DNA of 64,000 nt, taken from IMG/VR virus record IMGVR_UViG_3300028569_000028, positions 16,012-80,011 of that record. One strand, written 5' to 3'. The position numbers and the translations under genes are program-made. This document shows, one piece after another, positions 1-63,928 of this stretch (positions are counted from its first letter, which is position 1; each line of letters starts with the position of its first letter). The notes beneath the pieces are model-generated. The model saw only the letters and a list, made by a program, of their open reading frames with translations. It was not told the DNA's origin and did no database searches. The DNA comes from a virus.

Positions 1-474
1 GAGATTCAAGAAGTATTCGATATTCAAAAAGAAGTTCAGCTATTAAATGAATCTGGAGATCGACTAAGGGGTAAAATTGACTTTATTGCGAGTTTTAAAG
101 ATGATCCTAGCGCAAAGTTCATTATTGATAACAAAACCTCCTCAGAAGCTTATAAAGCAGATTCTGTGGCAAACAGCACTCAGCTTGCTATTTACTGCGA
201 AGCTGAGGCTTGTGATAGAGCTAGTTACGTTGTTATGGAAAAAAAGATGCGACTTAAAGAGCCAAAAGCAAGAACCCAGCTTATAAAAGACATTATCTCT
301 AATGAGCATAAGCAGAAAACATTTGACATTATAGAACAAAAGCTTAATAATATAGCCTGTGCAGAGTTTCATAAAAAGGACTCTCCAAAAGAATGCCACT
401 TTTTCGGCAAGCCTTGCGAGTTTTTTAATTTATGCTGGCATGGGAGAATGGATGGGATCAAAAAGAAAAATTAA
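1..474 (+). CDS. PD-(D/E)XK (RecB/Cas4-like) exonuclease, 5'-truncated by the window
   Basis: Frame is open from base 1: LRGKID...IIDNKT...QLAIY, with C-terminal cysteines (ECHFFGKPCEFFNLC). Confidence 0.8.
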   Translation, partial: EIQEVFDIQKEVQLLNESGDRLRGKIDFIASFKDDPSAKFIIDNKTSSEAYKADSVANSTQLAIYCEAEACDRASYVVMEKKMRLKEPKARTQLIKDIISNEHKQKTFDIIEQKLNNIACAEFHKKDSPKECHFFGKPCEFFNLCWHGRMDGIKKKN

Positions 475-667
475 AGTTGGAGATAATGTCCTTTGTATAC
501 AGGAATTACACGTGCCTAAATTTATTGGACATGTTTGGAAAGTTATAGAAATAGATACAGATAATGGTTTATATTACTGTATTAATCATAATATGATAGA
601 GCTTGAGTATGTTTTTCGTTTGGAGGAAATTGCTATAAATTCATCATTAATAAGGGAGTTATTGTGA
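452..667 (+). CDS. small SH3/KOW-like protein with C-terminal SSLIRELL tag
   Basis: Within ORF 359..667; likely start ATG 452 (MGSKRKIKVGDNV); ends SSLIRELL*. Confidence 0.7.
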   Translation: MGSKRKIKVGDNVLCIQELHVPKFIGHVWKVIEIDTDNGLYYCINHNMIELEYVFRLEEIAINSSLIRELL

Positions 668-831
668 CTTTTAAAAAAGGTGATAAAATTATAGACTTAC
701 CAAGTGGTAGGATATTCATAATTAAATATATGTTAGACAAAAAGCCCGTTGTTAATAATGGAGAATTTGATTTTCCACTTAGACTGGAAGTTGTTATAAA
801 ATGGAGTCCCTTAATGGAGGAATTGATATGA
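664..831 (+). CDS. 55-aa SH3-like protein with C-terminal SPLMEELI tag (absent from ORF track)
   Basis: GTG overlaps previous stop; MTFKKGDKIIDLPSGRIF...KWSPLMEELI*; stop overlaps next ATG at 828. Confidence 0.75.
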   Translation: MTFKKGDKIIDLPSGRIFIIKYMLDKKPVVNNGEFDFPLRLEVVIKWSPLMEELI

Positions 832-1166
832 GCGATTTAGAGAAGAAGTCCAAGAAAGAGCTATTGGACATTATTGACCAGCTTAAAGAAAAGCTAGGAG
901 AGATGCAAGGAGTTGAAGCTAAGCAAGAATCTTTAGAGCAAAGTTTGCCGGGAGTTGGCTTATCTGTTATTCAAGACAGAGATGGACTTTTCAAGATTCT
1001 GGAAATTTCATTTGACTTTGATTCAAAAGCCGCTACAATTACAAGTGTGACAAATGCCAACTCAACTGGGTATGACTATGCACTTTATGATGCAAAGAAA
1101 TTCTTGGTAGAACGAATTATGCATAAGTCTAATATTAACCATTTAAAGGAGAAAAAAAATGGATAA
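828..1166 (+). CDS. hypothetical protein, N-terminal coiled coil
   Basis: ORF 801..1166; ATG 828 preceded by GGAGG. Confidence 0.7.
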   Translation: MSDLEKKSKKELLDIIDQLKEKLGEMQGVEAKQESLEQSLPGVGLSVIQDRDGLFKILEISFDFDSKAATITSVTNANSTGYDYALYDAKKFLVERIMHKSNINHLKEKKNG

Positions 1167-1413
1167 GGAATTTGCTAAACGTCTTAAAAAGCTTGTGCCG
1201 GAAGATGGTGGATTTGATCTAAGTTTCAACCTATCTAACTCAGGTCAAGCTGGTAAGGTTGCATCTACTTTAAATCTTACAATCTTTTCAGCTGGTAAAG
1301 AAGGTAAAGGTCCAATCATTACAAAGAAAGTATCTATTCCAGCAATTGCTGCAACTATTGCCGAAGCTAATATTATTGCTTTGGAAGATACTCTAAGTCT
1401 GTTGGGGGTATAG
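1159..1413 (+). CDS. hypothetical protein
   Basis: ORF with AAGGAG SD, overlaps upstream gene. Confidence 0.65.
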   Translation: MDKEFAKRLKKLVPEDGGFDLSFNLSNSGQAGKVASTLNLTIFSAGKEGKGPIITKKVSIPAIAATIAEANIIALEDTLSLLGV

Positions 1414-1417
1414 TTAA

Positions 1418-2002
1418 GTGGACTTCCAAAAGAGAGAAAGCTTTAGAATAAATGTAATCTCCATGTTGGAAACAATATACGGTTTGGGTGAAGTCTGGGC
1501 ATTTCACCCAAGTTTTTTAAACATACTAGTATCTAATACAGGAAAAGCAAAAAACGCACTTACTGGAACTGAGTTTTCTATAAGAAAAACTTGGCAGGGG
1601 TATTGCGTTTGTAGTATTCCTACATTTCATACTACTGGAGTTAAAAAATCAAAAAGTTATTTAGTTCATAGATTAGTAGCAGAAACATTTTTTACTTTTT
1701 TGGTAAATGCAAAAGATTATGAAGTTAATCACATTTCTGGAGATAAATCAGATAATAGTGTTTATAATTTAAATTGGATGACTAGACAAGAAAATCTCCA
1801 ACATGCTAGAGATACTGGACTATTTAAATCGTGTTTTGGCTCAGCAAATGGTAGATTTAAGCATTTAGATTCTGATTTGAAAGATATTGTGGATTTAAAA
1901 AAACTAGGCTATACTTATACGGAGATTGCAAAATCGTATAATTTGAAGCCAACTTATATGTCTACCCTATTAAAAAGGAGGGGATTTTTATGTCAGGATT
2001 AA
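1418..2002 (+). CDS. HNH homing endonuclease
   Basis: VHRLVAETF...VNHISGDKSDNSVYNLNW motif plus C-terminal HTH-like region. Confidence 0.85.
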   Translation: MDFQKRESFRINVISMLETIYGLGEVWAFHPSFLNILVSNTGKAKNALTGTEFSIRKTWQGYCVCSIPTFHTTGVKKSKSYLVHRLVAETFFTFLVNAKDYEVNHISGDKSDNSVYNLNWMTRQENLQHARDTGLFKSCFGSANGRFKHLDSDLKDIVDLKKLGYTYTEIAKSYNLKPTYMSTLLKRRGFLCQD

Positions 2003-2610
2003 TTTACAAAAAAATGTCAGAGGTTATGCGAGACATTGGATCTATTGGGAAAGATCAAAAAAATCAAGCTCAAGGATTTAAATTTAGAGGTATTGATCAA
2101 TTTGTTAATTCTCTTTACCCAGCATTAACAAAACATGGAGTTTTTATGGCTCCTCGTTGTGTTAGTGAACAACATGAACTTAAAGAAGTTACTAGAGGTT
2201 CTGGTAAGGCTGGAGTGGATAAGCACGTTACAATTATGATGGAGTACGACTTCTTTGCTGAAGATGGTTCAAAAGTAACTGTCGGACCTATTCCTGCCGA
2301 AGGTTTGGATTCTGGGGATAAAGCTACAAATAAAGCTCTTTCAGCAGCTCTTAAGTATGCTCTTATTCAAACATTTGCTATTCCAACAGAGGATATGGCA
2401 GAGGCTGATTTGGAAAGTCCAGAAATTGGAAAACGCTTTTCAGCAAATGTCACGGTTACAACAATTTCAGCTCCCGTAACGAATAATGTTGCTAAGCTTG
2501 AAGAAAAGCCTGTAGAATCAACTCCAGCTGCGAGTCGTGGTTCGTTTCGTAAGAATCCCGCTAAAGACGTTGCGAATTCAGGAGCAACAATTCCCTCAGG
2601 AGATCTATAA
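1990..2610 (+). CDS. ERF-family single-strand annealing protein
   Basis: FKFRGIDQFVNSLYPAL...EGLDSGDKATNKALSAALKYAL, typical of ERF family. Confidence 0.85.
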   Translation: MSGLIYKKMSEVMRDIGSIGKDQKNQAQGFKFRGIDQFVNSLYPALTKHGVFMAPRCVSEQHELKEVTRGSGKAGVDKHVTIMMEYDFFAEDGSKVTVGPIPAEGLDSGDKATNKALSAALKYALIQTFAIPTEDMAEADLESPEIGKRFSANVTVTTISAPVTNNVAKLEEKPVESTPAASRGSFRKNPAKDVANSGATIPSGDL

Positions 2611-3326: not shown

Positions 3327-3551
3327 ATGAAGTTTAAAATTGGACCTTTTCGACAAGCACATAAAACGTTTGTACAAGAGAGATATATAAAAGATGGTAT
3401 GGATTCTTTAGCTTTATATTGTGCTGTTAGTTTATGTCCAGTAATTGCAGCTTATACCTATTGTCAAGAAATCGATCCAGATAATTCTGAGTTGACGAGA
3501 AGAATTGAAAGTGTTAAGCTTTTTTATGGAATCGAAGAGGTAGAAGAATGA
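3327..3551 (+). CDS. hypothetical protein
   Basis: GGAG SD; coupled to next gene. Confidence 0.65.
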   Translation: MKFKIGPFRQAHKTFVQERYIKDGMDSLALYCAVSLCPVIAAYTYCQEIDPDNSELTRRIESVKLFYGIEEVEE

Positions 3552-3757
3552 AGCCGGGAAGATATATTATTTTAGAAAAAACTGCGTTCTGGGTTCATTC
3601 TGATTTTGACATGTTGGATATTTTAGAAATAACCGAGAAAGAAATAAAGTATGAGTATGTTGGAGATAAGGATAAGATTGTAAGGTGTAGGTATTATGTA
3701 GAATTTATACAACTTAAACTTGCTCCGCATTCACCACTAATGGAAGAATTAATTTAG
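3548..3757 (+). CDS. small protein with C-terminal SPLMEELI tag
   Basis: Ends APHSPLMEELI*. Confidence 0.7.
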   Translation: MKPGRYIILEKTAFWVHSDFDMLDILEITEKEIKYEYVGDKDKIVRCRYYVEFIQLKLAPHSPLMEELI

Positions 3758-3764
3758 GAGAATT

Positions 3765-4796
3765 ATGATTGAAACGAAGGAAAAAATACAAATGACTAAC
3801 TTCAATGATAAAAGAAAGCAACAGATGGGTGTGCGTTCAATGGCAGACCTTCGTCGTTCCGGTAAGGTAACTGGGGGACTTAATACAAAGCTTTTTGTAA
3901 ACGGTCCTGTAGAGTTTGACTGCTTAAAAAATCAATGGAGCAGGCAGGAAATGCTTGGAGTTATCGGAGATTCTGGAGTAGGAAAATCAGAAGTAGTGCT
4001 TTGTTTTTTTAAAGAGATTCTTTTGAACAATCCTAATTCTTGTGCGGTATATGTTTCTCTTGAAATGACTGACGAGAAAATTTCCCAGCGTTGGTACAAG
4101 CTAACAGAAGATTGTCCTGAAGTTTCGGAAAGACTATATGTAATTTCTCGCTACGACGAAAATGGTAAAAGTCGAGAAGTTTCTATGGGCTGGATTAAGA
4201 AAGAGCTTGTTAAGTATCGTGAAGTCATTGGAGATGTTGTTTCGTTTGCCATTGACCATATTCACTGCTTAGGAGAGAATGACCCTTCTACTCTAAACTC
4301 GATTATGATTACGTTAAAAGAAATGGCAGTGGAGATGAATGCTTTTGGAATTGCCATGGCACAAGTTAATAAAGGCGCAGGACAGAAGGGCGAAGTTCCT
4401 CTGGATTCGGATGCAGTACTTGGATGTTCACAATTCAAATATATTTGTAGTGACATTATGCAAATTCACCGTCCTATTTTAAGGCTAGAGGAAGATGCCA
4501 AGATGTCAATAATGGGTTGGGGCTATTGCAAGATTCGAGAGGCTGATAAAGCTGATAAAGTTAAGCGTGGTCAAAACAAGCTTCTGGCTTATGACATTGA
4601 CACTCGAAGTTTCAAGAAGATGTCTACTCCAGAGTATTCTACTTTTAAGCTATATTATAATGAGCTTTTAGAAATGAAATCTGCGGAAGAAAAACACAAG
4701 AGCTTTACTTATGACTTGGTGAAAGAAGTTGTGAGTCCAAATGGAAAGGTTGTTATAATTACAGAGAAGTTTAGTGGAGATTCGGGGGATTTATAA
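3765..4796 (+). CDS. DnaB/RecA-fold replicative helicase
   Basis: Walker A GDSGVGKS, YVSLEM, IDHIH and AMAQV motifs of SF4 helicases. Confidence 0.85.
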   Translation: MIETKEKIQMTNFNDKRKQQMGVRSMADLRRSGKVTGGLNTKLFVNGPVEFDCLKNQWSRQEMLGVIGDSGVGKSEVVLCFFKEILLNNPNSCAVYVSLEMTDEKISQRWYKLTEDCPEVSERLYVISRYDENGKSREVSMGWIKKELVKYREVIGDVVSFAIDHIHCLGENDPSTLNSIMITLKEMAVEMNAFGIAMAQVNKGAGQKGEVPLDSDAVLGCSQFKYICSDIMQIHRPILRLEEDAKMSIMGWGYCKIREADKADKVKRGQNKLLAYDIDTRSFKKMSTPEYSTFKLYYNELLEMKSAEEKHKSFTYDLVKEVVSPNGKVVIITEKFSGDSGDL

Positions 4797-5647
4797 TGAA
4801 GCTTAGTATTTTTTCTAAGGTAAACTACCTACCAAAGAATAAAGATGATAAGATTGCCCAGTCTAAACTTGCGTCTAATCCTAACCTTCCACAAGTAATT
4901 GAGATTACTACTGATGAGGATTTGATTAAGGCTGTAACATCTTATGGATGGAGTCCGAGTATTTTCTCAAGCTTTAGACATAATGATAATTTTATTTCTA
5001 CTGACTTTATGAGCTTAGACGTTGATTCTGGGTTAACTATAGAAGAAGCTGAGAAGCGTGTGCAAAGACTTGGAGTGGCTTGCTTATGCCTTCCAAGTCC
5101 GAGCTTTACCCCAGAGTTTCATAAGTTCCGACTAATATTTCCACTGGCTAAGACTATTCTTAACAAAGATGACTTTGATGCTACGTGGGATTGGTTACAA
5201 GAACAATTACCAGAACTTGACGCACAATGCTCTGACTATGCTCGTTGGTACGCTCCTTCCAAGATGGAAGCTGGCTTTTGGCAAGATGGAGAATTCCTTA
5301 TGCCAAAGAAAGCTCCACAAGCTGTAGCAAGTTCCCTAAGCCACGCAGAAGCTCAGGTAATTGTCCCAGAAGAGCTTTCAGAGATTGTTAAGCTTTTGTA
5401 TGGCAAAGAACGAGAAACCATTTCTGAGTCTGTGGAGTTCTTTCTAACTAATGCAGGGACAGGATTGCCGGGACTCTGGATCAATGCGCTAAATAGTTGC
5501 ACCTTCTCTCTTGCCTTATCTGGGGTTGATGATACAATAATTGAGGAAGTCATTGATAAGATTTCTCCAGAACCTTTGGATAAGCGCGACCTATACCAAA
5601 TTAACAGGGCTATACGAGATGGAAAAAAAGCTAGAGAAAAGATGTAA
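4796..5647 (+). CDS. primase (AEP/prim-pol-like)
   Basis: SLDVDSG DxD motif, HKFRLIFPL, adjacent to helicase. Confidence 0.7.
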   Translation: MKLSIFSKVNYLPKNKDDKIAQSKLASNPNLPQVIEITTDEDLIKAVTSYGWSPSIFSSFRHNDNFISTDFMSLDVDSGLTIEEAEKRVQRLGVACLCLPSPSFTPEFHKFRLIFPLAKTILNKDDFDATWDWLQEQLPELDAQCSDYARWYAPSKMEAGFWQDGEFLMPKKAPQAVASSLSHAEAQVIVPEELSEIVKLLYGKERETISESVEFFLTNAGTGLPGLWINALNSCTFSLALSGVDDTIIEEVIDKISPEPLDKRDLYQINRAIRDGKKAREKM

Positions 5648-5840
5648 GGTGGATGATTTTAAGGTTGGCTCCAAGTACCGTTGTGGTTTACATACCTTTT
5701 ATGTAACTAATATTGACAGCATACACGGATGTGTGTATATTAAGTGGATTAAAGATAATGCTCAAGGTCTTATTTATCTTGGTAGTGAGTTCTATTCCTA
5801 TGAAGTTCCACTATCATCCTTAGAAAAGGAGTTACTTTGA
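5541..5840 (+). CDS. small SH3-like protein with C-terminal SSLEKELL tag (true start probably 5619 or 5649)
   Basis: FKVGSKY start region; ends PLSSLEKELL*. Confidence 0.65.
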   Translation: MRKSLIRFLQNLWISATYTKLTGLYEMEKKLEKRCKVDDFKVGSKYRCGLHTFYVTNIDSIHGCVYIKWIKDNAQGLIYLGSEFYSYEVPLSSLEKELL

Positions 5841-6088
5841 AAGACTCGCTAATTGACTATAATGATATATCATTTGAAAACCTAACTATGAAAATGGATC
5901 TTGAAGGACTTAGCGATGATATATTACTAGAAGAGTGTAATTTTATATTAAGCGGTCAATATGAAAGTGAACTTATGGATAACGTACTTGCCAATTACTT
6001 TAAAACCGGTAGCATTAGTAAACAAGAGCGTATGGTAGCAGAAGCTCTTTATATACTAGCTAACGGAGAACTTGCATGGGAAATTTAA
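5837..6088 (+). CDS. hypothetical acidic protein
   Basis: Coupled ORF, AAGGAG SD. Confidence 0.6.
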   Translation: MKDSLIDYNDISFENLTMKMDLEGLSDDILLEECNFILSGQYESELMDNVLANYFKTGSISKQERMVAEALYILANGELAWEI

Positions 6089-6306
6089 AAGTTGGCGATG
6101 ATATTATAGTTACAAAAGTATTGTGTATTGCTACAGCAATAAAAGCTAAATCAATAATTGGAACTAAACATAAAATTATTCAATTAGATTTTGTAGATTT
6201 TATAAGCTTCCAATTTCAAACGTATCCGTATCAGATATTAGTAAAAGGTACTACTTTCTGGGTGGAAGGAATTCCTTACAGTTCTTTAATGGAGGAGTTA
6301 TTTTGA
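6076..6306 (+). CDS. small SH3-like protein with C-terminal SSLMEELF tag
   Basis: LKVGDDI start; ends PYSSLMEELF*. Confidence 0.7.
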   Translation: MGNLKVGDDIIVTKVLCIATAIKAKSIIGTKHKIIQLDFVDFISFQFQTYPYQILVKGTTFWVEGIPYSSLMEELF

Positions 6307-7712
6307 AAGATTCTTATCATATTTCTGATAGCATTGCTTATTCCGAATTACGTTCTCTTATATTAGAGGACAAGGAACCTTTTCAACTCAAGCCTGATAA
6401 AATTGAAACAAAAGATTACGAGTTTACATTCGCAGAAACTTATAAGCCTTTTCTAAAAGAATTACAGTATCAAGATGATATCATTTTTGGTAAAGATAAA
6501 ACTTTAGAAATTGTGGCTATTGAATTGCAAGATAATAATGCCATTCTATTCAAACTGGATGGTTCTGTAGAGGTACGTCCAGCTAAGTTTTGGCTTTTAT
6601 CATCAACAAAGATCGACCTTAATTTTAAAAGACTGGAAGGTAATCTCCATTACAAGTACATTAGGTATTTCTCATCTTATGAGCAATTCTGCAAATATAT
6701 GCAAATGTTTATGGGTATGAGAAAAGATGTCTATGGTGTATGGAATGCTCGTGAGCAATTTATGCTTCACGAAGGAATAACGCTTTATAAGGGACTTCAG
6801 CCACAGGATTTAGGTGTACTGGCTTTTGATATTGAGTCTGATGGATTAACAAAGCATTCCGGTAGCCAAGTTTATCTTATTACAAATAGCTATCGCAAAA
6901 AAGACCTGCATATTAAAAAGCACTTCAGACTCGACCATTACAAAGATTGTGGCGAACTTATTGATGCTTGGACTGAATGGCTAAGAGAAATTGATCCAGA
7001 TATTATTAACTTCTGGAACGGATATGGTTATGACTTACCCTATCTTGAGCATGTTGCAGGACTTTATGACACAAGCCTAAAGCTTGGGCGTGATGGTTCA
7101 AATGTCCAATTTAAGAAGAAAGCCTCTCAGAAGCGCGTGGACGGAAATACAAGTTGGGACTACTTTAAAGCTCATATCTATGGTAGACAAATTATTGATG
7201 GTCAATTTGTAGCATTAAACTATGGCGTTGGTAAGGGATATCCAAGTTGGGGGTTAAAGCCTATCGCTGAAGCTGAAGGCTTTGTTACGCCTGATAGACA
7301 ATTCTATGATGCTTCTCAAATTCATAAAAACTGGGGAATTCCAGAAGAGCGTGAGAAAATTATCCAGTATGGTATCGATGACTCAGAGGATACAATTAAT
7401 TTATACTTCCGAATGATTACTTCCTATTTTTATACAGCTGTATCAACAGCTATGCCATTTGAAGAAATGCTACAAGGAGCTACTGGTAAATGGGTAAATT
7501 CAGTTCTTGTGCGGGGATATCTCCAGCGTGGATATTCTATTCCTAAAGCTTCTGAACCGCAAAGAGTAGCTGGTGGTATGAGTTATGGAATTCCGGGAAT
7601 CTATTCCAATGTTCTAAAGTATGATGCTGCCAGTTACTATCCTAGCACTATCCTAAGTTTAATATTCACAATTCAGAAAAAGATCCTGACAATATATTTG
7701 TTAAGACTGTAA
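6303..7712 (+). CDS. family B DNA polymerase, N-terminal part (3'-5' exonuclease + motif A); frameshift at ~7658
   Basis: ExoI AFDIESDG, ExoII WNGYGYDLPYL, ExoIII YGIDDS, motif A YDAASYYPS. Confidence 0.9.
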   Translation: MKDSYHISDSIAYSELRSLILEDKEPFQLKPDKIETKDYEFTFAETYKPFLKELQYQDDIIFGKDKTLEIVAIELQDNNAILFKLDGSVEVRPAKFWLLSSTKIDLNFKRLEGNLHYKYIRYFSSYEQFCKYMQMFMGMRKDVYGVWNAREQFMLHEGITLYKGLQPQDLGVLAFDIESDGLTKHSGSQVYLITNSYRKKDLHIKKHFRLDHYKDCGELIDAWTEWLREIDPDIINFWNGYGYDLPYLEHVAGLYDTSLKLGRDGSNVQFKKKASQKRVDGNTSWDYFKAHIYGRQIIDGQFVALNYGVGKGYPSWGLKPIAEAEGFVTPDRQFYDASQIHKNWGIPEEREKIIQYGIDDSEDTINLYFRMITSYFYTAVSTAMPFEEMLQGATGKWVNSVLVRGYLQRGYSIPKASEPQRVAGGMSYGIPGIYSNVLKYDAASYYPSTILSLIFTIQKKILTIYLLRL

Positions 7713-8767
7713 AATACTTTACCGAAGCTCGACTAAATAATAAGAAGCTATTTAAAGAAACTGGAGATAAGTATTATGATGATTTACAGGCTGCTGGTAA
7801 AATCTTCATTAACTCAAGTTATGGAGTTTTAGGGACTCCCGGCTTGAACTTTAACTCTTTTGAACACGCAGCAGAAATTACCCGATGTTGCAGAGCTGGA
7901 CTTAGCAAGGCTGTAATCTGGGCAACAGGTTATGATATTACTCACTGGTGGAAAGAATATAAGGAAGAACAAGATTATGAAGACTTTTCTCACATTGATA
8001 TACAAACTAAAGTTAGCTTTGATAATATGCCTAGAAATAATTACATCCTTGTTAACCTCGATACCGACTCACTCTCTTTCGCTAAAAATGACCACAGCAG
8101 CTTTTCTGAGGAAGAGAAGCGAAGTATTGAAGAGCAACTTAAAGGAATAATGTATTGCGATTGGGAAGACGATGGTGAATATGACCGAGTGATTGTTTCC
8201 AAGGCTAAGAACTATGTTTTACTTCCCAAGGGTGAAAAGAAGTTTAAAACTAAAGGTTCAAGCTTTGTTGATAGTAAGAAAGAACCGGCATTGTTATCTA
8301 TGCTCCAAGAACTTCTTAAGAGCTTGGTTTTTAATGAAGGAAAGGAGCTGGAGGTTTATAATAGGTATTGCAAAGAAACCTTAGCCATTTCAAATATTTC
8401 TCGTTGGGCTGTAAAAAAGTCTGTGACTAAAAAGCTGTTAACTGGAACTAGGAAAAATGAAACTAAGGTTTTAGAAGCTTTAGACTCGGATGCTAGAGAA
8501 GGTGATAAAGTTTGGGTTTATAACGCAGTTGATGGAGAGGTTCAAGTTGAAGCAAAAGGTGAACTTCAGTTCTACAAGGATGGTCGTCCCAAGATGGAAG
8601 CAAACCGAGTTCTTAGAAATGTAAAACGCTTTGATGGAAATTATGACAAGGATCATTATTTAAGCAGAGTTTATGCCACTATAAGAATTTTAGAAAATGT
8701 TCTTGATATGTCACAGTTCTTGGATTACTCTAAACCTAAGAATGCTAAACTCAAGGAGAGTTTGTGA
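7661..8767 (+). CDS. family B DNA polymerase, C-terminal part (-1 frame; ORF track start 7844)
   Basis: -1 frame is open from 7646 and carries motif B KIFINSSYG, motif C LDTDS and KNY. Confidence 0.9.
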   Translation, partial: NIHNSEKDPDNIFVKTVKYFTEARLNNKKLFKETGDKYYDDLQAAGKIFINSSYGVLGTPGLNFNSFEHAAEITRCCRAGLSKAVIWATGYDITHWWKEYKEEQDYEDFSHIDIQTKVSFDNMPRNNYILVNLDTDSLSFAKNDHSSFSEEEKRSIEEQLKGIMYCDWEDDGEYDRVIVSKAKNYVLLPKGEKKFKTKGSSFVDSKKEPALLSMLQELLKSLVFNEGKELEVYNRYCKETLAISNISRWAVKKSVTKKLLTGTRKNETKVLEALDSDAREGDKVWVYNAVDGEVQVEAKGELQFYKDGRPKMEANRVLRNVKRFDGNYDKDHYLSRVYATIRILENVLDMSQFLDYSKPKNAKLKESL

Positions 8768-9210: not shown

Positions 9211-9372
9211 GTGGAAATACTACAAACAATCGCTTTACTGTGTCAACTTAGTGGAGCTGGAGTTTATGCAGAAGAAGCACAGCTACGCTGTCAAAAGTAT
9301 TATGTTAAATGTTTAGACCCACTTAATGCTGGCTATAAAACCTTAGCCAAATGTATACTGGAGAAAAAATGA
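9211..9372 (+). CDS. 53-aa Cys-containing protein (absent from ORF track)
   Basis: AGGAG SD; MEILQTIALLCQ...KCILEKK*; coupled to next ATG. Confidence 0.6.
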   Translation: MEILQTIALLCQLSGAGVYAEEAQLRCQKYYVKCLDPLNAGYKTLAKCILEKK

Positions 9373-9689
9373 ACTTAAAAATTGGCGATAAAGTAAAAAT
9401 GACAAAGAAAGGCTTTAAATTCTACGGCAATATAGAAATCACATTCGATATGAATCAAATTGATGGAAAGATGATTTATGAGCATTTTGAATCAGCTCTT
9501 TGTGAATCCAAAGCTATTCATGGTATTGGTACTGTTAAAAGATTCAACGATCTAAACGAACCTTATGTTCTTTGGGAAAATAGTTTAGATGGAATAAGGT
9601 ATTTCTACACTCACTACTTTGAACTAAAAGATGTAAGAAAGCTTAATTTCTTTGACAGACTTAAAGCTAAACTAAAGAGTTTACTATGA
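9351..9689 (+). CDS. hypothetical SH3-like protein (start probably 9369)
   Basis: MNLKIGDKVK start. Confidence 0.65.
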   Translation: MYTGEKMNLKIGDKVKMTKKGFKFYGNIEITFDMNQIDGKMIYEHFESALCESKAIHGIGTVKRFNDLNEPYVLWENSLDGIRYFYTHYFELKDVRKLNFFDRLKAKLKSLL

Positions 9690-12128: not shown

Positions 12129-12260
12129 ATGAATTCTGAAGACTACCACAGCCAACGAATTAAGTTACAAGTGTTACAGGCAAAATTACAATTTTTACAA
12201 GTTGTAATTCAAGTTACTACATTGGCGGCTACTTTAATACTTCTTGGGAATAAGCTATAA
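12129..12260 (+). CDS. 43-aa protein with hydrophobic C-terminus (absent from ORF track)
   Basis: MNSEDYHSQR...ATLILLGNKL*; TAATG coupling to next gene. Confidence 0.5.
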   Translation: MNSEDYHSQRIKLQVLQAKLQFLQVVIQVTTLAATLILLGNKL

Positions 12261-12559
12261 TGGTCACTATGATAGTTGTTGGAATTTTGTTGACAATTAA
12301 TATGTTTTTAATGCATATTGAGTATCTAGGAAAGGCGTATAGCTGGACTTATAAAAAACTCATGAGACCAAAATTTGAATCAGGTGAACTTGTAATGATA
12401 GGAAATATAGAATTTAAAGTTATGTATGTGACAAAAAACCATAGACCGTACACTTATTATTGTACGCCAGTTAGTTATAAAAAGATGTACTTCGTAGATA
12501 ATTATTACCACGAATCTCAAATCAAAAAGAAGACTGGTTTATTAAAGGAATTAGAATGA
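12260..12559 (+). CDS. TM-anchored SH3-like protein with C-terminal TGLLKELE tag
   Basis: N-terminal TM, FESGELV, ends KKTGLLKELE*. Confidence 0.65.
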   Translation: MVTMIVVGILLTINMFLMHIEYLGKAYSWTYKKLMRPKFESGELVMIGNIEFKVMYVTKNHRPYTYYCTPVSYKKMYFVDNYYHESQIKKKTGLLKELE

Positions 12560-18773: not shown

Positions 18774-18964
18774 TGTCTAAAACTGTAGTTATTAAAAAAG
18801 ACGAAGAAACACAAGAACACTATTTTGATATGAAAGACTTGGAAGATTTGTTTGAAGATCCATCATTAATCGACCAATACTCTATGGAGTTGCGAGATGA
18901 TGGTTCTATACTTCTTGAGTTTTTTGACAAAGACAATAACAAAATTTTACCAAATAAAGTATGA
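18773..18964 (+). CDS. small acidic hypothetical protein
   Basis: Coupled on both sides. Confidence 0.6.
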   Translation: MSKTVVIKKDEETQEHYFDMKDLEDLFEDPSLIDQYSMELRDDGSILLEFFDKDNNKILPNKV

Positions 18965-19887
18965 AAACTCCTGAACAAATAAAGTTGGAACTAGACGAAT
19001 ACGTTATTGGACATGAAAAAACCAAGCGTTCTATGTCAGTTGCGGCTTATAATCACTTTAAGAGAATGGCTGGAAGTAACATTAAAAAAAGTAATGTACT
19101 TTTAATGGGACCGACTGGATGCGGAAAAACATACATGGTTTCTATTCTAGCTAAAATTCTAGGAGTTAACTTTCTTACAAGCGACGCTACTCAATTTACC
19201 TCATCTGGATATCAAGGTAGGAGCGTCGAGGAGTTAATCACAGACATCATTGGTGTTTGTGAGGATGATGAAAAGAAAGCTAGTAAAGCTATTATATACA
19301 TTGATGAAATTGATAAGCTTAGAAAAAAAGACTCCGCTGGTTCTGGTCCAGATGTTAACGGTCTTGGAGTTCAACAATCACTACTAAAACTTTTGGAAGG
19401 GAGTGATGTACCTTATATTTCTAAATATTCTCAAAATGGAGAATATGATAAAAAGATGAATACTAAAGATATTATGTTTATATGTTCTGGAGCTTTTGTT
19501 GGTCTTGAATCAACTTCAATACCGCATCTAATTGATTTTGGAATGATCCCAGAGTTTTTAGGAAGATTTTCTGTAATTACCCAACTTCAAGAGCTTAAGT
19601 TTGATGATTATAAAAAAATCCTTAAAGACTCTAAAGGTTCGATTCTAAATTCATTTCGTGAGTGGTTTTCAAGTGAAAAAATTGAGCTTGTGGTCGATGA
19701 CAGTGCTCTTAATATCATTGCACAAAAAGCCATTGAAAAAGGTCTTGGAGCTAGAGGATTACACAGCGTTCTTGACGAAGCTTTATTAAATGCTCAATTT
19801 GAAGCCCCTAGTTTGACTAACAAGCCAAAACAATTTATACTTGACGCTAGTGTTGTAATGACAGGAAAATCTAAATGGGTTTACTAA
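18961..19887 (+). CDS. clpX: ClpX-like AAA+ ATPase lacking the zinc-binding domain and IGF loop
   Basis: LDEYVIG, AAYNHFKR, KSNVLLMGPTGCGKT, IYIDEIDK, GVQQSLLKLLEG, FICSGAF, PEFLGR, GARGL. Confidence 0.9.
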   Translation: MKTPEQIKLELDEYVIGHEKTKRSMSVAAYNHFKRMAGSNIKKSNVLLMGPTGCGKTYMVSILAKILGVNFLTSDATQFTSSGYQGRSVEELITDIIGVCEDDEKKASKAIIYIDEIDKLRKKDSAGSGPDVNGLGVQQSLLKLLEGSDVPYISKYSQNGEYDKKMNTKDIMFICSGAFVGLESTSIPHLIDFGMIPEFLGRFSVITQLQELKFDDYKKILKDSKGSILNSFREWFSSEKIELVVDDSALNIIAQKAIEKGLGARGLHSVLDEALLNAQFEAPSLTNKPKQFILDASVVMTGKSKWVY

Positions 19888-33950: not shown

Positions 33951-33953
33951 AGC

Positions 33954-35153
33954 TTACCACCTTCTATTGCGTCGCCCTAGAGTGTTCAGTGTATTTACCA
34001 GAGGTGAATGCCTAGACTTAATCTTCTGCATTGCACCTTCAACTCTATTGTCGAGAAATGTTGCAGCATCTTTTTCCATTGTGGCAAGTTTTCTTTCTGC
34101 AGATTGTTTATTTTGCTCATCGCCCATTGCTTCCAAACAAGCAACAGCAACTCGCTGTGCTAAAATAGGATGGAGTTCTGTGGGGATATTTGGAACAAAT
34201 GTTTCCTCTGCAAGCGTTATATAAGAGCCTACAATAAGATCTGGAATATCTGTTGCTACAAAGCTTATTTGTTTAGATACTTGATTGATTGCGTTAAAAC
34301 GCTTATCATAATGAATTATTTTATTTGGGGATACATTTTGAACAAAGTCAAAGAAATTATTCTGGAGAAATATAGCTGGAAGAGTAGATAGTGTTAGTCG
34401 TTTAACACTTAGTGCAGCATTGAAATTTCCACCGATAGATCCAACAGAAGAAGTAGTAAATTTAACACTAAAAGTATTTGCATCAATAACATTAATTTCA
34501 TGGAATCCATCCACAGAAGGAGTTGTATTAGCCCCAGAAATTTGAACAAGTTGTTTATTAGTAAGTCCATGACTAACACTTGTAAATGTGGTTTCTGTTC
34601 CAGAGACTATGTTTGTAAAAGCTCCAGTCTTAGGATTAATCTGGTCAATTTCAGAAGTCTGTGCAATACTAATAATGGTACTGCCAGCAGATTCTATTAC
34701 TAAATGGTTAGGACGCATATAGAAATACATGCGAAGTTTCATTCTATCATTTGCATCAAAGTTAGAAAGAATTACATCGTTGTTTTCTAAATAAAAGCCA
34801 CGGTTATTAATGTACGTTGTGGTGTTTGTGAAATCTGAAATTTCACCTAAAGAATATCTATGCATTTCAAAAATATTATCATTTTCATCAATAAGAGCTA
34901 CATCACGCATTTTATTCCCATGCGCTCTAGAAGGAATAGCATATCTCTTTTTCCCCCCTATTAATGGAAGGTCGATATAGTAAATGAGATGCTCTTCGTG
35001 CATTCTTTGTATAAGCGGCACAAGTCCAATATTGACTTCTTCTGTAGCCATTCTTAATAAATCTTCATCGGTAAAAGACTCTTGAGAATTGGGTATGAAT
35101 GCGCGTCGCTTAATACTGCGAATTAAATCGCCAGTTTTTAAAATGCTACTCAT
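33954..35153 (-). CDS. tail tubular protein A/adaptor with inserted domain
   Basis: LIRSIKRR...DLL N-terminus, IPTELHPIL C-terminal motif; upstream of tubular B. Confidence 0.65.
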   Translation of the reverse strand: MSSILKTGDLIRSIKRRAFIPNSQESFTDEDLLRMATEEVNIGLVPLIQRMHEEHLIYYIDLPLIGGKKRYAIPSRAHGNKMRDVALIDENDNIFEMHRYSLGEISDFTNTTTYINNRGFYLENNDVILSNFDANDRMKLRMYFYMRPNHLVIESAGSTIISIAQTSEIDQINPKTGAFTNIVSGTETTFTSVSHGLTNKQLVQISGANTTPSVDGFHEINVIDANTFSVKFTTSSVGSIGGNFNAALSVKRLTLSTLPAIFLQNNFFDFVQNVSPNKIIHYDKRFNAINQVSKQISFVATDIPDLIVGSYITLAEETFVPNIPTELHPILAQRVAVACLEAMGDEQNKQSAERKLATMEKDAATFLDNRVEGAMQKIKSRHSPLVNTLNTLGRRNRRW

Positions 35154-35167
35154 TTTATAGCCTTATA

Positions 35168-35557
35168 TTACTTTCCTAGTTTCTTCTTCAGCATTTCGAA
35201 CATTGCTTCCATTTCTTCTGGAGACATTTCCGAGGCATCTTCTTCCGCTTCCATTTCTGGAGACTCTTCTTCAGAATCCTCAGAAGCTTGACAAAGAGGA
35301 CAGCCTTTGCCTTTACACTTAGGACAAGACTCATCTTCTGATTCTTCGCCATTACCTTCTTGGCTAGATTTCATCTGCATAATCTTCTCAGCCATAGAAA
35401 GTCCTTTTTTAAGACCTTCTGGAGAGTCAGACATAACAGATACTTTTTTCATGCCTTTTTTGCCAATCATGTCTTTCATTGGAGAATACATGTCATTTGA
35501 CATTTCTTTTGAAAGTTCTTTGAGCATCTCAGACTTAGCTTTTGCTTTCTTTTCCAT
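35168..35557 (-). CDS. acidic late protein with CPKC..CPLC motif
   Basis: AGGAG SD and its own late motif. Confidence 0.65.
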   Translation of the reverse strand: MEKKAKAKSEMLKELSKEMSNDMYSPMKDMIGKKGMKKVSVMSDSPEGLKKGLSMAEKIMQMKSSQEGNGEESEDESCPKCKGKGCPLCQASEDSEEESPEMEAEEDASEMSPEEMEAMFEMLKKKLGK

Positions 35558-35584
35558 AGTTTATAGCTCCTTTGTGCCACATAA

Positions 35585-35594
35585 TATAAGGGTG
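35585..35594 (-). promoter_or_regulatory. late promoter motif CACCCTTATA
   Basis: Exact intergenic copy. Confidence 0.8.
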
Positions 35595-35650
35595 TTATTT
35601 GTTAATTTATTAATATTATTAATTATTTATGTAAAAACAAAGAGTTAGAA

Positions 35651-35680
35651 AAGAAAAAGGCCCCTATATGGAGCCCTTTT
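35651..35680 (-). terminator. Rho-independent terminator
   Basis: GGCTCC-ATATA-GGGGCC followed by TTTTTCTT on the - strand. Confidence 0.65.
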
Positions 35681-35684
35681 ATTA

Positions 35685-36530
35685 TTAATCTTGTTGATAA
35701 ATTTCAAACTTACTGATTCGTATTATGTCGGAGCTAGATGCGCCTACAAAATTAAAAGATAGATTATAGTAACCCGGACCACCATCGGCAACACCCGGAC
35801 CACCATCGGCAAGTCTTGTTAAATCAAACTCATGATAACCATTTGCTGCAACCGATGCTAAAATTTGTGCCGTTGTAGCTGTAAGTGCTGATTCTGCTCC
35901 ATGATCTGTCCAATAAATTGCGTAAGTTCCAGATCCTTCAATAGAATCAACGTAAAGTCTAACTTTCAAGTTACTAGATTTTGTCTCAGTAGTTATAGCT
36001 GCTGATCTAGGATAAATAATTCCATAGTTATTTTCTCCTACGATATCAAAACCAACTTGAATTAATTTTCCTTCTTGTAAGTTACTACTCCCAGTAGTAT
36101 TCTCGTGTACCGCAGGGGCAGAGTATGAATTATTAATAAACATTCTAGTATGGTAAAGACTTAAATTAGAAGGCGGTTGAGATGATTGAAAATTAATATC
36201 AAATTCGGAAGCCTGAACTTCAGATCTTGGTATTTCTAAAAATCCACCATCAAAGTCTAATATTACCAATTTTTGAATTTCAAACGAATCTCTAGCTTGA
36301 TTTGAAACTAAAAAAGACCCCACTGGAGTAGATAAAGTTGCGTCAAATTCAACAATTTCATACTGACTTCCAGAAGAACTTTTATACACCACATTAACTC
36401 TGTACCAATTACTAGAGTCAGAAAAATAAGAATCTGCAACAACCATAGCATGTTGCAAAAGCTCAGATTTAGAAAGAGTAAAAGCGGCAGTTTGTCCTTT
36501 ATAAGTGGACGGTTTTGTTATTATAGCCAT
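35685..36530 (-). CDS. virion accessory protein (paralog of 37534..37968 plus C-terminal domain)
   Basis: Shared N-terminal domain; tandem LADGGPG/VADGGPG duplication. Confidence 0.6.
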   Translation of the reverse strand: MAIITKPSTYKGQTAAFTLSKSELLQHAMVVADSYFSDSSNWYRVNVVYKSSSGSQYEIVEFDATLSTPVGSFLVSNQARDSFEIQKLVILDFDGGFLEIPRSEVQASEFDINFQSSQPPSNLSLYHTRMFINNSYSAPAVHENTTGSSNLQEGKLIQVGFDIVGENNYGIIYPRSAAITTETKSSNLKVRLYVDSIEGSGTYAIYWTDHGAESALTATTAQILASVAANGYHEFDLTRLADGGPGVADGGPGYYNLSFNFVGASSSDIIRISKFEIYQQD

Positions 36531-36541
36531 TTTTATTCTCC

Positions 36542-37513
36542 TTAAACTTTAATAATTAGACGAAGATTAGCATTTGTATCTGGACTTGGAATATTAAAAG
36601 TAGTAGAGCCGTTTCCAGACCCGTAAGAAACTCCAATCAATGTAAAAAGAGCAGAGTATGTTGATCTGCTAACAGCAGAACCATCACATAAAAGCCACCC
36701 AGAAGGAGCCGAGGAACCAGCATATATCTGTATTACTCCTACTGGAATAAGTCCACTTGTTGCAACTATAGAATCTGCGTAGGACTTTGCAGAATTTAGA
36801 GTTGTAACATCAGCTGCTAGTCTAGTAACCTCTTCTGTAGCTATAATTGCCGCAAAGTCCATTAGTTTAGACTCTGTATAAGACTTTGCCGAGTTTAGAG
36901 TTGTAACATCAGCTGCTATTCTAGTATTTACTTCTTCAGTTAAACTAGTAGATAAAGCAGTATCGGCTGCTAGTCTAGTAACCTCTTCTGTAGCCAAAGC
37001 TGCCCAAAACGGCCATACTTTGGAATCTGCGTAAGACTTTGCCGAGTTTAGAGTCGTAACATCAGCAGCAGTTCTATTACTTACTTCTTGACTTAAACTT
37101 GTAGATAAAGCAGTATCAGCTGCTAGTCTAGTAACCTCTTCTGTAGCTATAATTGCCGCAAAGTCCATTAGTTTAGACTCTGTATAAGACTTTGCAGAAT
37201 TTAGAGTTGTTGTATCTGCAGAATTTCTCGCAGAAACCTCAGAGCTAATTTCAGAATCAGTGTAAGACTTTGCGGAATTTAAAGTATTCGTATCTGCTGT
37301 TTGTCTGTTTGTAACTTCAGAACTTAAAGCAGAATCTAAACTTGATAATTCGCTTATAACCTCTGATTTTTTTTGATCGGCATAAGCCTTTAGAGGAGCT
37401 TCCAGAGTACTAGCCTTTATAGACTTCGATACTCCACCAGTGGAAACAAGTAGTAAGTCATCGGCACTAAGGCTCGTGACTTTTTCGGATAACTGTGATA
37501 ATTTTTTATTCAT
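36542..37513 (-). CDS. fibre protein with coiled-coil repeats and tail-collar domain
   Basis: TLNSAKSY repeats; PVGVIQIYAGSSAPSGWLLCDGSAVSRSTYSALF. Confidence 0.8.
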   Translation of the reverse strand: MNKKLSQLSEKVTSLSADDLLLVSTGGVSKSIKASTLEAPLKAYADQKKSEVISELSSLDSALSSEVTNRQTADTNTLNSAKSYTDSEISSEVSARNSADTTTLNSAKSYTESKLMDFAAIIATEEVTRLAADTALSTSLSQEVSNRTAADVTTLNSAKSYADSKVWPFWAALATEEVTRLAADTALSTSLTEEVNTRIAADVTTLNSAKSYTESKLMDFAAIIATEEVTRLAADVTTLNSAKSYADSIVATSGLIPVGVIQIYAGSSAPSGWLLCDGSAVSRSTYSALFTLIGVSYGSGNGSTTFNIPSPDTNANLRLIIKV

Positions 37514-62081: not shown

Positions 62082-62306
62082 GTGACAGATATGTTTGAAG
62101 CCAGTCAAGAAAATTTCCTAAAGATGTATTTCTCAGGACTTAGAGTTAAAGTTGAAGTATATTTAATGAATGGATGTGTTATAGAATGGTGGTTTTCTCT
62201 TGATGGTGGTAGTGTGTTTCTTGTAAGTCCAGAAACTTACCATAAATATTTAAAATTTGTTGAAAAAATTGAAAAAGATAAAACATTACTGACAGAGTTA
62301 CGTTGA
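62082..62306 (+). CDS. small protein with degenerate C-terminal tag KTLLTELR
   Basis: ORF track; C-terminus. Confidence 0.6.
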   Translation: MTDMFEASQENFLKMYFSGLRVKVEVYLMNGCVIEWWFSLDGGSVFLVSPETYHKYLKFVEKIEKDKTLLTELR

Positions 62307-62307: not shown

Positions 62308-62610
62308 ATGAAAGAAGCTTTGAAACAACTACGAAAAATTATCCAGATGCCTGACCAAAAGCATTGGAATTACGTAGAAATGCGGGAACGAGCCTTAGAA
62401 GAGTGGATTGACATGTGGGTTATCCAACTACAATATGAACAATCTGTATTAGATCAGCGATATTTAAAGCTTGAGTTTGAAGACTTCTTAAAAGAACACA
62501 TAGGCAACAAGCTAACCGATCAAGCGATGGAGAGTGCTGTTGAAATTACAAAAGAAAAGACTAAGATTAAAGGATCTTTGACATGTATAAGAAGGAAACC
62601 AAAAGGCTAG
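62308..62610 (+). CDS. hypothetical protein
   Basis: 100-aa ORF. Confidence 0.65.
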   Translation: MKEALKQLRKIIQMPDQKHWNYVEMRERALEEWIDMWVIQLQYEQSVLDQRYLKLEFEDFLKEHIGNKLTDQAMESAVEITKEKTKIKGSLTCIRRKPKG

Positions 62611-62792
62611 ACATTACAAAACTTAAACAAAATCAAGTAGTTTGGTCTGTGCGATTTCAAGCTTACCTTTGTTTTATTGGAGTAGAAGAAGGATCTGAGT
62701 TTCTATTCCGAGCAATGACTGGCCCCCAGTTATATTTATTATATCATTCAGACATATATGAACCATATAGCCTTATTAAGGAGTTATTATAG
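62583..62792 (+). CDS. small protein with C-terminal YSLIKELL tag
   Basis: Ends EPYSLIKELL*. Confidence 0.65.
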   Translation: MYKKETKRLDITKLKQNQVVWSVRFQAYLCFIGVEEGSEFLFRAMTGPQLYLLYHSDIYEPYSLIKELL

Positions 62793-63145
62793 TGACAGCT
62801 AAACGTAAACCTCGCAAGAAAAAACAACAACTTGCAGGAAATATCCACAGCGGAGTATTGTTTATTGGAGACTGCCAGTTCTTTGCAGGAAGCCCTCAGT
62901 TAGAGCTTGATCCAACCACGGGACAAACTATAGACGTAACTCCAAAAGACCCATTAAACCCATTTAACACGCTTGACAGAACTTTTGAGATAGCTGGAGA
63001 AACTGAGGCTAACTTAGAACTTGGACCCTTTCTACCCGGCAGAGGTGTGCTATTAAATACTCACCTCCAACAAGGTAGATTTGTGGTGCGTAAGAAGATG
63101 AAGAATGGTAAGCTTGTTGGGTATTCTATTGATATAAAGGAATAG
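62792..63145 (+). CDS. hypothetical protein
   Basis: AAGGAG SD, coupled. Confidence 0.65.
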   Translation: MTAKRKPRKKKQQLAGNIHSGVLFIGDCQFFAGSPQLELDPTTGQTIDVTPKDPLNPFNTLDRTFEIAGETEANLELGPFLPGRGVLLNTHLQQGRFVVRKKMKNGKLVGYSIDIKE

Positions 63146-63146
63146 T

Positions 63147-63329
63147 ATGACAAAACAAGAATGGCTTAAAAATTACCTAATTAGCTGCGATTTCCATATT
63201 CCAACAGAGAATAATATCCAAGAAAAACTATCAGGGTTAACTGCTATCCAGATTGTGCAAGCTATGGAAGATGCTAAGAAAATCTTAGATAAACTTAAGA
63301 AGACTTCTCTAGGAAAGGAATTAAATTGA
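63147..63329 (+). CDS. small helical protein with C-terminal TSLGKELN tag
   Basis: C-terminus. Confidence 0.65.
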   Translation: MTKQEWLKNYLISCDFHIPTENNIQEKLSGLTAIQIVQAMEDAKKILDKLKKTSLGKELN

Positions 63330-63565
63330 TTCAAGACTGGAAAGCTCTTTCCCCAGAAGAGTCAAGTGTGGTATTATTTAAGAAGTGTGTGGAGTTGCTT
63401 TTACGAGAAGAGGGGTATAAGATAACTGCAGACACAACCATAAGAGTTCTAACACAGCGACTTTATGGAGATTATAGACAAGTATACCACACACAAGAAT
63501 ATAAAAGGGCCGAGAAGCATGTCTTCCACTTCAAAAACACCGGACTGGGCAAACAGTTATTCTGA
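63326..63565 (+). CDS. small protein with C-terminal TGLGKQLF tag
   Basis: C-terminus. Confidence 0.65.
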   Translation: MIQDWKALSPEESSVVLFKKCVELLLREEGYKITADTTIRVLTQRLYGDYRQVYHTQEYKRAEKHVFHFKNTGLGKQLF

Positions 63566-63566
63566 A

Positions 63567-63722
63567 ATGAGAAAGGTGCTTATGCGCTTTAAAACAGACG
63601 AATTAGAGACTTTACAAGATGCCTATACCATAATGGACCCTGATATGTTTAAATTGCAAATAAAGGCAATTAAGGACGAATTAGAGCTTAGGAAGACAAG
63701 CCTTGGTCAGGAACTATTGTGA
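63567..63722 (+). CDS. small helical protein with C-terminal TSLGQELL tag
   Basis: Within ORF 63465..63722; probable start MRKVLM. Confidence 0.65.
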   Translation: MRKVLMRFKTDELETLQDAYTIMDPDMFKLQIKAIKDELELRKTSLGQELL

Positions 63723-63928
63723 AATTAAAGAAAGGTGGGGTATATGAGATTGGAGGATCTGTTTATGATGATGATGACAACTCTTATTTTATAAAGATCA
63801 ACTCTGACTTAATCTATGACTACTACCGCGTAAGTATATTAGGTACTTATAGTTTCGACACTAAGATTTGTCCCGAAGATTGGGAATATATTAGAGAACT
63901 TAGCAGCTTGGAGAAAGAGCTGTTGTGA
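63719..63928 (+). CDS. small SH3-like protein with C-terminal SSLEKELL tag
   Basis: LKKGGVY start; ends ELSSLEKELL*. Confidence 0.7.
   Translation: MKLKKGGVYEIGGSVYDDDDNSYFIKINSDLIYDYYRVSILGTYSFDTKICPEDWEYIRELSSLEKELL

Follow-up and report, generated by a model that had tools for sequence, protein, structure and literature searches.

The 64,000-nucleotide stretch analysed here (the window) comprises bases 16012-80011 of the 80,011-bp virus record IMGVR_UViG_3300028569_000028, and its small plus-strand genes include a set whose products share an eight-residue C-terminal tail that may serve as a docking helix for a single partner protein. The source is an uncultured tailed phage with a G+C content of 37%. 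A megablast search of the window against GenBank phages returned no close DNA relative, and the best GenBank phage match to the large terminase is only 29% identical; lake, freshwater and estuary metagenomes of 10 or more studies contain near-identical DNA. The replication and accessory arm lies on the plus strand, running from about window position 61,700 across the record start to window position 21,400, and encodes a RecB/Cas4-like exonuclease, ERF, a DnaB-like helicase, primase, DNA polymerase, ribonucleotide reductase (RNR), HNH endonucleases, a ClpX-like ATPase and a MoxR-like ATPase. The virion genes occupy the minus strand, and the tail is found on none of them in this genome, as the initial annotation had claimed for late proteins.

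That annotation described the tail as [ST]-[SPG]-L-x-x-E-L-x at the end of twelve proteins. When the open reading frames (ORFs) were re-read, all twelve quoted ends were in place, with codons and stop codons exact. The tails are real, although two weak members lack Ser or Thr at position -8 (the last residue being -1). The twelve genes are listed below together with selected counterparts in the relatives G001 and G002, which are complete genomes, and L057, a metagenome contig.

452-667, plus strand: tagged gene, 71 residues, ending SSLIRELL; predicted to form a KOW/SH3-like barrel of five strands with a short helix at the end.
664-831, plus strand: tagged gene, 55 residues, ending SPLMEELI; its GTG start overlaps the stop of the preceding tagged gene; the G002 orthologue (43% identity) ends SSLIKELT.
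3548-3757, plus strand: tagged gene, 69 residues, ending SPLMEELI; immediately 5' of the DnaB-like helicase, with no overlap coupling to the next gene; the same slot holds a tagged gene in G001 (SELLTALN) and L057 (TKLEQTLK).
5619-5840, plus strand: tagged gene ending SSLEKELL; 73 residues from the likelier start, ATG 5619, or 95 from TTG 5553.
6076-6306, plus strand: tagged gene, 76 residues, ending SSLMEELF; immediately 5' of the DNA polymerase; in its orthologue cluster (cluster 4) body identity is 0.51 and tail identity 0.79.
12260-12559, plus strand: tagged gene, 99 residues, ending TGLLKELE; hydrophobic N-terminal segment (likely a membrane anchor) and a barrel-like part; the G001 orthologue ends SDLLKSLL.
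62082-62306, plus strand: weak member, 74 residues, ending KTLLTELR, without Ser or Thr at -8; the G002 orthologue (41% identity) ends TPLLLELK.
62583-62792, plus strand: weak member, 69 residues, ending YSLIKELL, without Ser or Thr at -8; the G002 orthologue (36% identity) ends PSLLKELI.
63147-63329, plus strand: tagged gene, 60 residues, ending TSLGKELN; body predicted to be all-alpha, the tail forming a helix of its own at the end.
63326-63565, plus strand: tagged gene, 79 residues from TTG 63326, ending TGLGKQLF; no Shine-Dalgarno-like sequence in the tail; the G002 orthologue ends TGLGRELF.
63567-63722, plus strand: tagged gene, 51 residues from the probable start ATG 63567 (the longest ORF begins at 63465), ending TSLGQELL.
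63719-63928, plus strand: tagged gene, 69 residues, beginning VKLKKGG and ending SSLEKELL.

Three further tagged genes, ending SSLERELL, TPLEVELL and SSLELELL, lie in the 16 kb of genome ahead of the window, the last of them encoding a 241-residue protein with a partial DUF6745 match, which brings the count for the whole 80-kb genome to 15. The pattern [ST].L..[EQ]L.$ is expected at a rate of 1.2e-4 per protein, or about 0.016 occurrences per genome, against 10 to 15 observed here depending on how strictly the pattern is drawn. Within proteins the same pattern occurs 8 times in 23,659 positions, approximately the background rate, indicating that the enrichment is confined to the C-terminus.

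Selection on these eight residues acts at the level of the peptide. The initial annotation had cautioned that the Glu codon often supplies the Shine-Dalgarno (SD) sequence of the following gene, and there is a real bias of this kind at -4 and -3: about three-quarters of the tagged genes end in ATGA, GTGA or TTGA, and AAG at -4 and GAG at -3 are over-used, yielding AAGGAG or AAGG. The bias is secondary; the SD sequence is embedded in the tail through synonymous choice and does not dictate the peptide. In the window genome (G000), 21 untagged genes have the same four-base NTGA overlap but have Leu at neither -6 nor -2 and neither Ser nor Thr at -8, and the tagless sister phage G003 has 19 such overlaps and zero tags, so the tail is not a general property of coupled genes. 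Conversely, about 25% of the tagged genes have no overlap; the gene ending at 3757 is not overlap-coupled, and the tail ending at 63565 contains nothing resembling an SD sequence. Among 116 distinct ends of tagged genes in this phage and its relatives, the codons of the conserved Leu, Ser, Thr and Ala residues follow genome usage, with all six Leu codons occurring at conserved positions and Ser encoded as both TCN and AGY. The SSLEKELL peptide at 63928 differs in every codon from the identical peptide at 5840. Background codon usage at the conserved residues, together with the uncoupled carriers, upholds the earlier proposal of protein-level selection. Finally, the tails of two divergent relatives (the K and P dialects described below) have no GGAG, one example being ACA AAA CTG GAA CAA GTC CTT AAA, which contains no SD sequence; this excludes the SD sequence as the cause of the tail.

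Relatives were recovered by aligning helicase homologues and using the alignment to draw loci from IMG/VR, JGI metagenomes and GTDB genomes, and four further complete or near-complete genomes were added to this set. The co-occurrence and co-variation analysis covers seven full genomes (G000-G006) plus partial loci. Phages with helicases 86-96% identical to that of the window carry 1-11 tagged ORFs per 5-21-kb locus, and complete relatives have 22 to 38 tagged genes, up to a quarter of their gene content. There were zero tagged ORFs in G003 and the G004 locus L019, where the helicases are only 63-65% identical.

Comparison of the tagged relatives revealed that the tail exists in four lineage-specific forms, here called dialects. 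The E dialect, [ST]-[SPG]-L-x-x-E-L-[LFI], is that of the window genome and its closest relatives, including the complete genome G002 with about 23 tagged ORFs. In the A dialect of G001, whose helicase is 90% identical to that of the window, 34-38 ORFs end [TS]-[EDP]-L-x-x-A-L-L. The K dialect, [TS]-K-L-x-x-[VA]-L-[KLR], ends 15 ORFs in 19 kb of the metagenome contig L057 (helicase 73% identical), and the P dialect, S-P-L-[YMW…]-x-A-L-[KR], ends 22 ORFs of the 89-kb contig G006 (helicase 72% identical). Each dialect extends genome-wide, over 13-38 proteins apiece. Ser or Thr at -8 and Leu at -6 and -2 are present in nearly all tails of all dialects; positions -7, -5, -3 and -1 are near-uniform inside a genome and lineage-specific between genomes, and -4 is free. 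A single E-type end, SSLVLELL, was seen in G001, on a 1357-residue protein of the virion arm (32894-36967, locus L024); the protein has no orthologue in the other genomes, and its ending may be due to chance.

Dialect tracks the genome and not the gene family. When tagged proteins were clustered by BLAST after removal of the last ten residues, 115 proteins fell into 61 body clusters, three of which mix E- and A-dialect members in convincing alignments. One such cluster ends …SSLEKELL in five E genomes and …SDLEKALL in G001; another is the membrane-anchored protein, ending TGLLKELE or SDLLKSLL. A further body family spans the E, K and P dialects. The existence of these four families in more than one dialect indicates that the families are older than the split between lineages and that their tails changed in parallel. 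Codon sharing between same-residue tails within a genome was close to the expectation from codon usage (0.34 versus 0.33, 0.37 versus 0.32, and 0.31 versus 0.32), indicating that gene conversion or other homogenisation of DNA is not what keeps the tails alike. The tail was also conserved in orthologues: its identity exceeded that of the body in all 10 clusters tested (0.53-1.00 versus 0.30-0.69). The tagged proteins as a group evolve fast, being 36-54% identical between genomes in which helicase, portal and capsid are 88-90% identical. When positional orthologues from the window genome and the A-dialect G001 were aligned in pairs, the bodies showed no usable similarity. An apparent match between 5553-5840 and L009 12842-13117 was rejected, as it arises from an overlapping frame of the upstream gene. 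Between helicase and primase, the number of tagged genes varies from 0 to 4 among relatives (window 4796; L009 11020-12057; L057 9273-10623), suggesting that small genes are gained and lost quickly at gene boundaries.

The bodies that carry the tail are diverse, although less so than was at first supposed. No significant pairwise body similarity was detected among the 15 tagged proteins of this genome, Pfam and PHROGs offered no family for any of the ten tagged proteins searched, and the ESM Atlas placed tagged proteins in unnamed viral clusters only. An iterative hidden Markov model (HMM) search on the bodies recruited 27 of 155 tagged proteins. Many tagged proteins start K-x-G-D, however, and hhalign on the bodies joins clusters 0-4-12-16 and 9-18. 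The AlphaFold2 model of the 452-667 protein (alignment A2) is a five-strand barrel with a mean predicted local distance difference test (pLDDT) value of 86.5, in which the tail forms a helix at residues 65-70 with values of 64-78, below those of the barrel. Foldseek matched this model best to Spt5/NusG KOW domains and uL24, with template modelling scores of 0.6-0.7 and E-values of about 3e-3. The model of the 63147-63329 protein (pLDDT 73.5) instead consists of helices at residues 3-13, 24-28, 33-51 and 54-59, and the 13 homologues of this protein, 75-98% identical, all keep T-[SPT]-L-G-[KR]-E-L-[NS]. The tagged bodies thus do not share a single barrel fold: one is modelled as a barrel, one as all-alpha, one is likely membrane-anchored, as the initial annotation had anticipated, and one is the 241-residue protein with the DUF6745 match. 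The claim that the bodies are unrelated is nevertheless overstated for the whole set, since most look KOW/SH3-like and several groups are linked by profiles. Based on the models, the tail is portable across at least two predicted folds, while most tagged bodies probably look like one KOW/SH3-type barrel.

Searching 1.84 billion representatives with a profile of the 452-667 barrel family retrieved 232 proteins. About 65 of these are small and have a single domain, and 46 of the 65 have the tail at their end; the others are long, with 2-6 tandem barrel copies whose units end …RFELV and have no tail helix, which suggests that the barrel does not need the tail. Family members without the tail also occur in the window itself (9351-9689) and in the untagged sister phage (G003 13254-13619), the latter suggesting that the barrel is older than the tag.

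We favour, with somewhat less than even confidence, the interpretation that the tail is a portable docking helix read by a single co-evolving partner. Judging from the residue pattern, the last eight residues would form a portable N-capped amphipathic helix, with Ser or Thr at -8 followed by Pro, Ser, Glu or Asp resembling a typical helix N-cap, Leu at -6 and -2 forming a ridge, -7 and -3 flanking it on one side and -5 and -1 on the other, and -4 facing away. This helix would act as the common docking handle of many small, fast-evolving proteins, most of them KOW/SH3-like barrels and a few of other folds. One reader protein would bind the Leu ridge, with the flanking positions fitting the rim of its site, so that a change in the reader would be followed by a joint change of the flanking positions in all tagged proteins. 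Docking would then recruit, remodel or destroy whatever the variable bodies bind. A near-invariant core, a lineage-specific rim and a free back face are what would be expected of a helix lying in a partner's groove with a varying rim, and co-variation of the variable positions across whole genomes is what would be expected if one common reader exists. The tail in this respect behaves as short docking motifs do, with selection on the peptide, portability across folds, and co-variation over all carriers.

A reader might be encoded by the phage. The initial annotation put forward the phage's ClpX-like ATPase as the first of its candidate hubs:

18961-19887, plus strand: ClpX-like AAA+ ATPase (Pfam AAA_2, 3.3e-23).

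This gene is present in the E-dialect genomes G000, G002 and G005 and absent from the untagged G003 and G004, but it is also absent from the complete A-dialect genome G001, which has 34-38 tags, and no homologue was found in the P-dialect contig G006, with its 22 tags. Co-occurrence of tag and ATPase therefore fails in two tagged lineages, and this protein is not a general reader. By correlation, the best phage-encoded candidate is instead a MoxR-like AAA+ ATPase whose gene adjoins one for a protein with an HExxH metallopeptidase and a vWA domain, the DxSxS metal ion-dependent adhesion site (MIDAS) of which is intact. All five tagged full genomes (G000, G001, G002, G005 and G006) encode this pair, whereas neither of the two untagged ones does. 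A host-encoded reader is equally possible. In a more elaborate proposal, the tagged set would be a library of tiny binder domains plugged by their tails into the MoxR/metallopeptidase-vWA machine, which would remodel or destroy many host proteins through interchangeable adaptors, with tag and reader co-evolving into dialects; we think it unlikely that this full scenario is correct.

Other C-terminal ends in these genomes were also conserved. The MoxR-like ATPase (L001 5797-6954, in genome coordinates, ahead of the window) has an SSB-like tip, …LDEEIPF, that recurs as …SDIPF in G002 and …SVPF in G006 and is missing from the A-dialect G001. The ERF annealing protein (window 1990-2610) and the DnaB-like helicase (3765-4796) end alike, in …IPSGDL and …SGDSGDL, and relatives keep similar ends (…IPSGDL, …SAGDL), which may represent a second, replisome-type shared tail. 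A conserved untagged protein of 84 residues (window 1159-1413) has an end of its own, …LEDTLSLLGV, corresponding to …LEGALTLLGV in G001 and …LETAVELLGF in L057.

Several observations weigh against a docking helix with one reader, or against MoxR as that reader. No binding partner for the tail was found. A few proteins of E-dialect genomes carry Ala or Thr at -3, departing from their dialect. Distant relatives of one barrel family have 1-3 residues beyond the tail, or another terminal helix, indicating that the strict end position is not universal, and the prevalence of one fold among the bodies means that common descent probably accounts for part of the sharing. The co-occurrence of the MoxR/vWA pair with the tag amounts to one phylogenetic contrast, between the tagged clade and its sister, and about 25 other genes show the same presence pattern. 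The stretch of MoxR that follows sensor 1, NPxTDDYxVLDF, is identical in all dialects. A complex prediction for the DUF2201 peptidase-vWA protein with the 452-667 barrel returned a score of 0.25 and a mark of 0.32, which speaks neither for nor against binding.

Descent provides the first alternative: the tail could be a structural capping helix of one old, much-duplicated barrel family, shared by inheritance, with dialects that are founder effects. The frequent K-x-G-D starts, the modelled KOW/SH3-like barrel, the hhalign links between clusters and the retention of the tail by 46 of 65 small family representatives, with other amphipathic ends on the distant ones, are all consistent with such a history. 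It nonetheless seems unlikely to be the main explanation, as the units of tandem-repeat barrels end without the helix, the tail is also carried by an all-alpha protein and by the 241-residue DUF6745-like protein, and the body HMM recruits so small a part of the set. Paralogues within a genome are, moreover, far more diverged than orthologues from different lineages, yet they share the same dialect, and it is the surface-type positions that are uniform within each genome while -4 varies freely.

It is also possible that the tails bind one another, or one another's bodies, to form mixed oligomers in which the need for mutual compatibility would produce genome-wide dialects. Co-variation across a genome is as compatible with mutual recognition as with a separate reader, and an amphipathic tail helix with charged flanks (K/E pairs), modelled in monomers at a confidence below that of the body, would suit such contacts. 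Two helical turns are short for stable self-association, however, and there is no obvious gain from mixing 15-38 different small proteins, and we rate this explanation as quite improbable.

The tail might alternatively be a C-terminal degron that passes tagged proteins to a host or phage protease or unfoldase for timed removal after early infection, a role that the initial annotation had also raised. The fixed position at the extreme end and the hydrophobic finish recall ssrA-type and other C-degrons, the tagged genes are in the replication arm, and the E-dialect phages encode the ClpX-like ATPase. The residues, however, do not match the ssrA-type pattern: such degrons depend on their terminal residues, whereas here the inner residues are fixed and the last is free, being L, F, I, E, N, T, K, R or S according to protein and lineage. 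Two tagged lineages lack the ClpX-like gene, as noted above, and phages with 90%-identical helicases would be expected to share any degron addressed to a conserved host protease. A degron therefore appears doubtful, and rather improbable as the general function of the tail. The idea that the tail arises incidentally from the nucleotide signals of coupling, namely the SD sequence of the next gene and the stop-start overlap, draws on the NTGA endings and the AAG/GAG excess, but it is very improbable indeed, as it is contradicted by the controls described above (coupled genes without the tail, tails without coupling, free synonymous variation where conservation at the nucleotide level would be needed, SD-free K and P tails) and leaves S/T at -8 and L at -6, which lie outside the SD sequence, unaccounted for.

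The genes surrounding the tagged ones were themselves variable among relatives. The DNA polymerase gene of the window (6303-8767) is split into two ORFs of 469 and 307 residues by a change of frame near 7650-7712, which may reflect either faulty assembly or a genuine frameshift; in L002, a 96%-identical relative, the polymerase is a single ORF of 821 residues. No BLAST match to the polymerase of the window genome and G001 was found in G002, and the polymerases of G002, G006 and L057 are related to that of the untagged G003. These relationships cut across the clade, suggesting that the polymerase gene has been exchanged within it. The type of RNR also differs among close relatives (L001 13478-15334; L009 2389-5063; L057 17154-18125): the RNR of the window genome and that of G002 match class II (B12) domains, and the A- and K-dialect phages encode class I large and small subunits. 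A 323-residue protein common to the A and K dialects was considered as a reader and rejected, as it is the small subunit of the class I enzyme. The replication module also contains inserted HNH endonuclease genes (window 1418-2002; L001 8982-9560), whose presence and sites vary among relatives.

Small early proteins with no assigned function abound in phage genomes. If the tail is indeed a shared, co-evolving tag, dozens of them would work via one common machine. The tail peptide would then be a simple handle for isolating that machine and for sorting orphan genes according to mechanism, the four dialects would provide natural specificity-swap controls, and the combination of tag and barrel could be useful as a compact targeting scaffold. 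Should the MoxR/vWA pair prove to be the reader, a function would be assigned to a widespread and unexplained phage pair, and the adaptor-library proposal, if true, would describe a prokaryotic-virus counterpart of the F-box/PRANC families of substrate receptors.

A search of the open-access full-text literature yielded no account of this tail or of such small-protein families. The tail is unusual among short C-terminal docking motifs in its scale, as many as a quarter of the genes in one phage carrying it, and in its four natural dialects. The closest parallels in general form are the clamp-binding ends of T4 gp43, gp33 and gp55, the acidic tails of T7 gp2.5 and gp4, and the tip of bacterial SSB, all of which are C-terminal docking tails; whole-genome dialects are not known from those systems. 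As in those systems, a short peptide at the extreme C-terminus is common to several different proteins, which there dock on one partner, but here there are 15-38 carriers per genome, mostly small proteins outside the replisome, and the peptide is a putative N-capped Leu-x3-Leu helix and not of the acidic or QL[SD]LF type. The resemblance to clamp-binding tails suggested in the initial annotation does not extend to the pattern (QL[SD]LF or QLxLxL), as the tails have no Gln at the required place and their Leu residues are spaced i/i+4 with a Ser/Thr cap; QLF occurs in a single tail, TGLGKQLF, and no clamp gene was recognised among the phage proteins scanned.

Encapsulin cargo-loading peptides are likewise short, C-terminal, and built around spaced Leu or Ile residues on diverse cargo proteins, and are read by a shell of the HK97 fold. 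The tails described here differ in Leu spacing and belong to replication-arm genes, not virion genes, and no evidence of packaging was found. The XB tail of SspB (…LRVVK-COOH), which binds the N-domain of ClpX, and the ssrA-type C-degrons are C-terminal peptides that address an AAA+ machine, and the K dialect (…L-E-K-V-L-K) is superficially XB-like; here, however, the last residue is not conserved, and two tagged lineages do without the phage ClpX-like protein. In overall organisation the tagged set is reminiscent of the poxvirus ankyrin-repeat proteins that carry a PRANC/F-box-like domain at the C-terminus, and of the cellular F-box and SOCS-box families. There, each of many paralogues has its own variable binding part and a conserved C-terminal element by which it attaches to one host machine. 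The phage tail has 8 residues where those domains have 40-50, its bodies are tiny barrels, the virus infects prokaryotes, and no ubiquitin-type machinery was found here.

For the MoxR-type candidate the relevant comparison is with NorQ-NorD, where the vWA partner NorD docks by its final hydrophobic residues on the post-sensor-1 loop within the ring of the MoxR-type ATPase; the last two of these residues are essential for this binding and thus for formation of the complex (PMC13036017). Pairs of MoxR and metallopeptidase-vWA proteins have also been noted in jumbo phages, where a role in virion assembly was proposed (PMC7824862). Every tagged genome examined here encodes a similar pair, a MoxR-type ATPase with an HExxH-peptidase/vWA protein bearing the DxSxS MIDAS. 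By analogy, the arrangement proposed for this phage would differ in that a library of clients, and not one vWA partner, would dock at the ring, and the corresponding stretch of the phage MoxR is invariant across the dialects. The reading of a hydrophobic C-terminus by a MoxR ring nevertheless has a precedent in NorQ-NorD.

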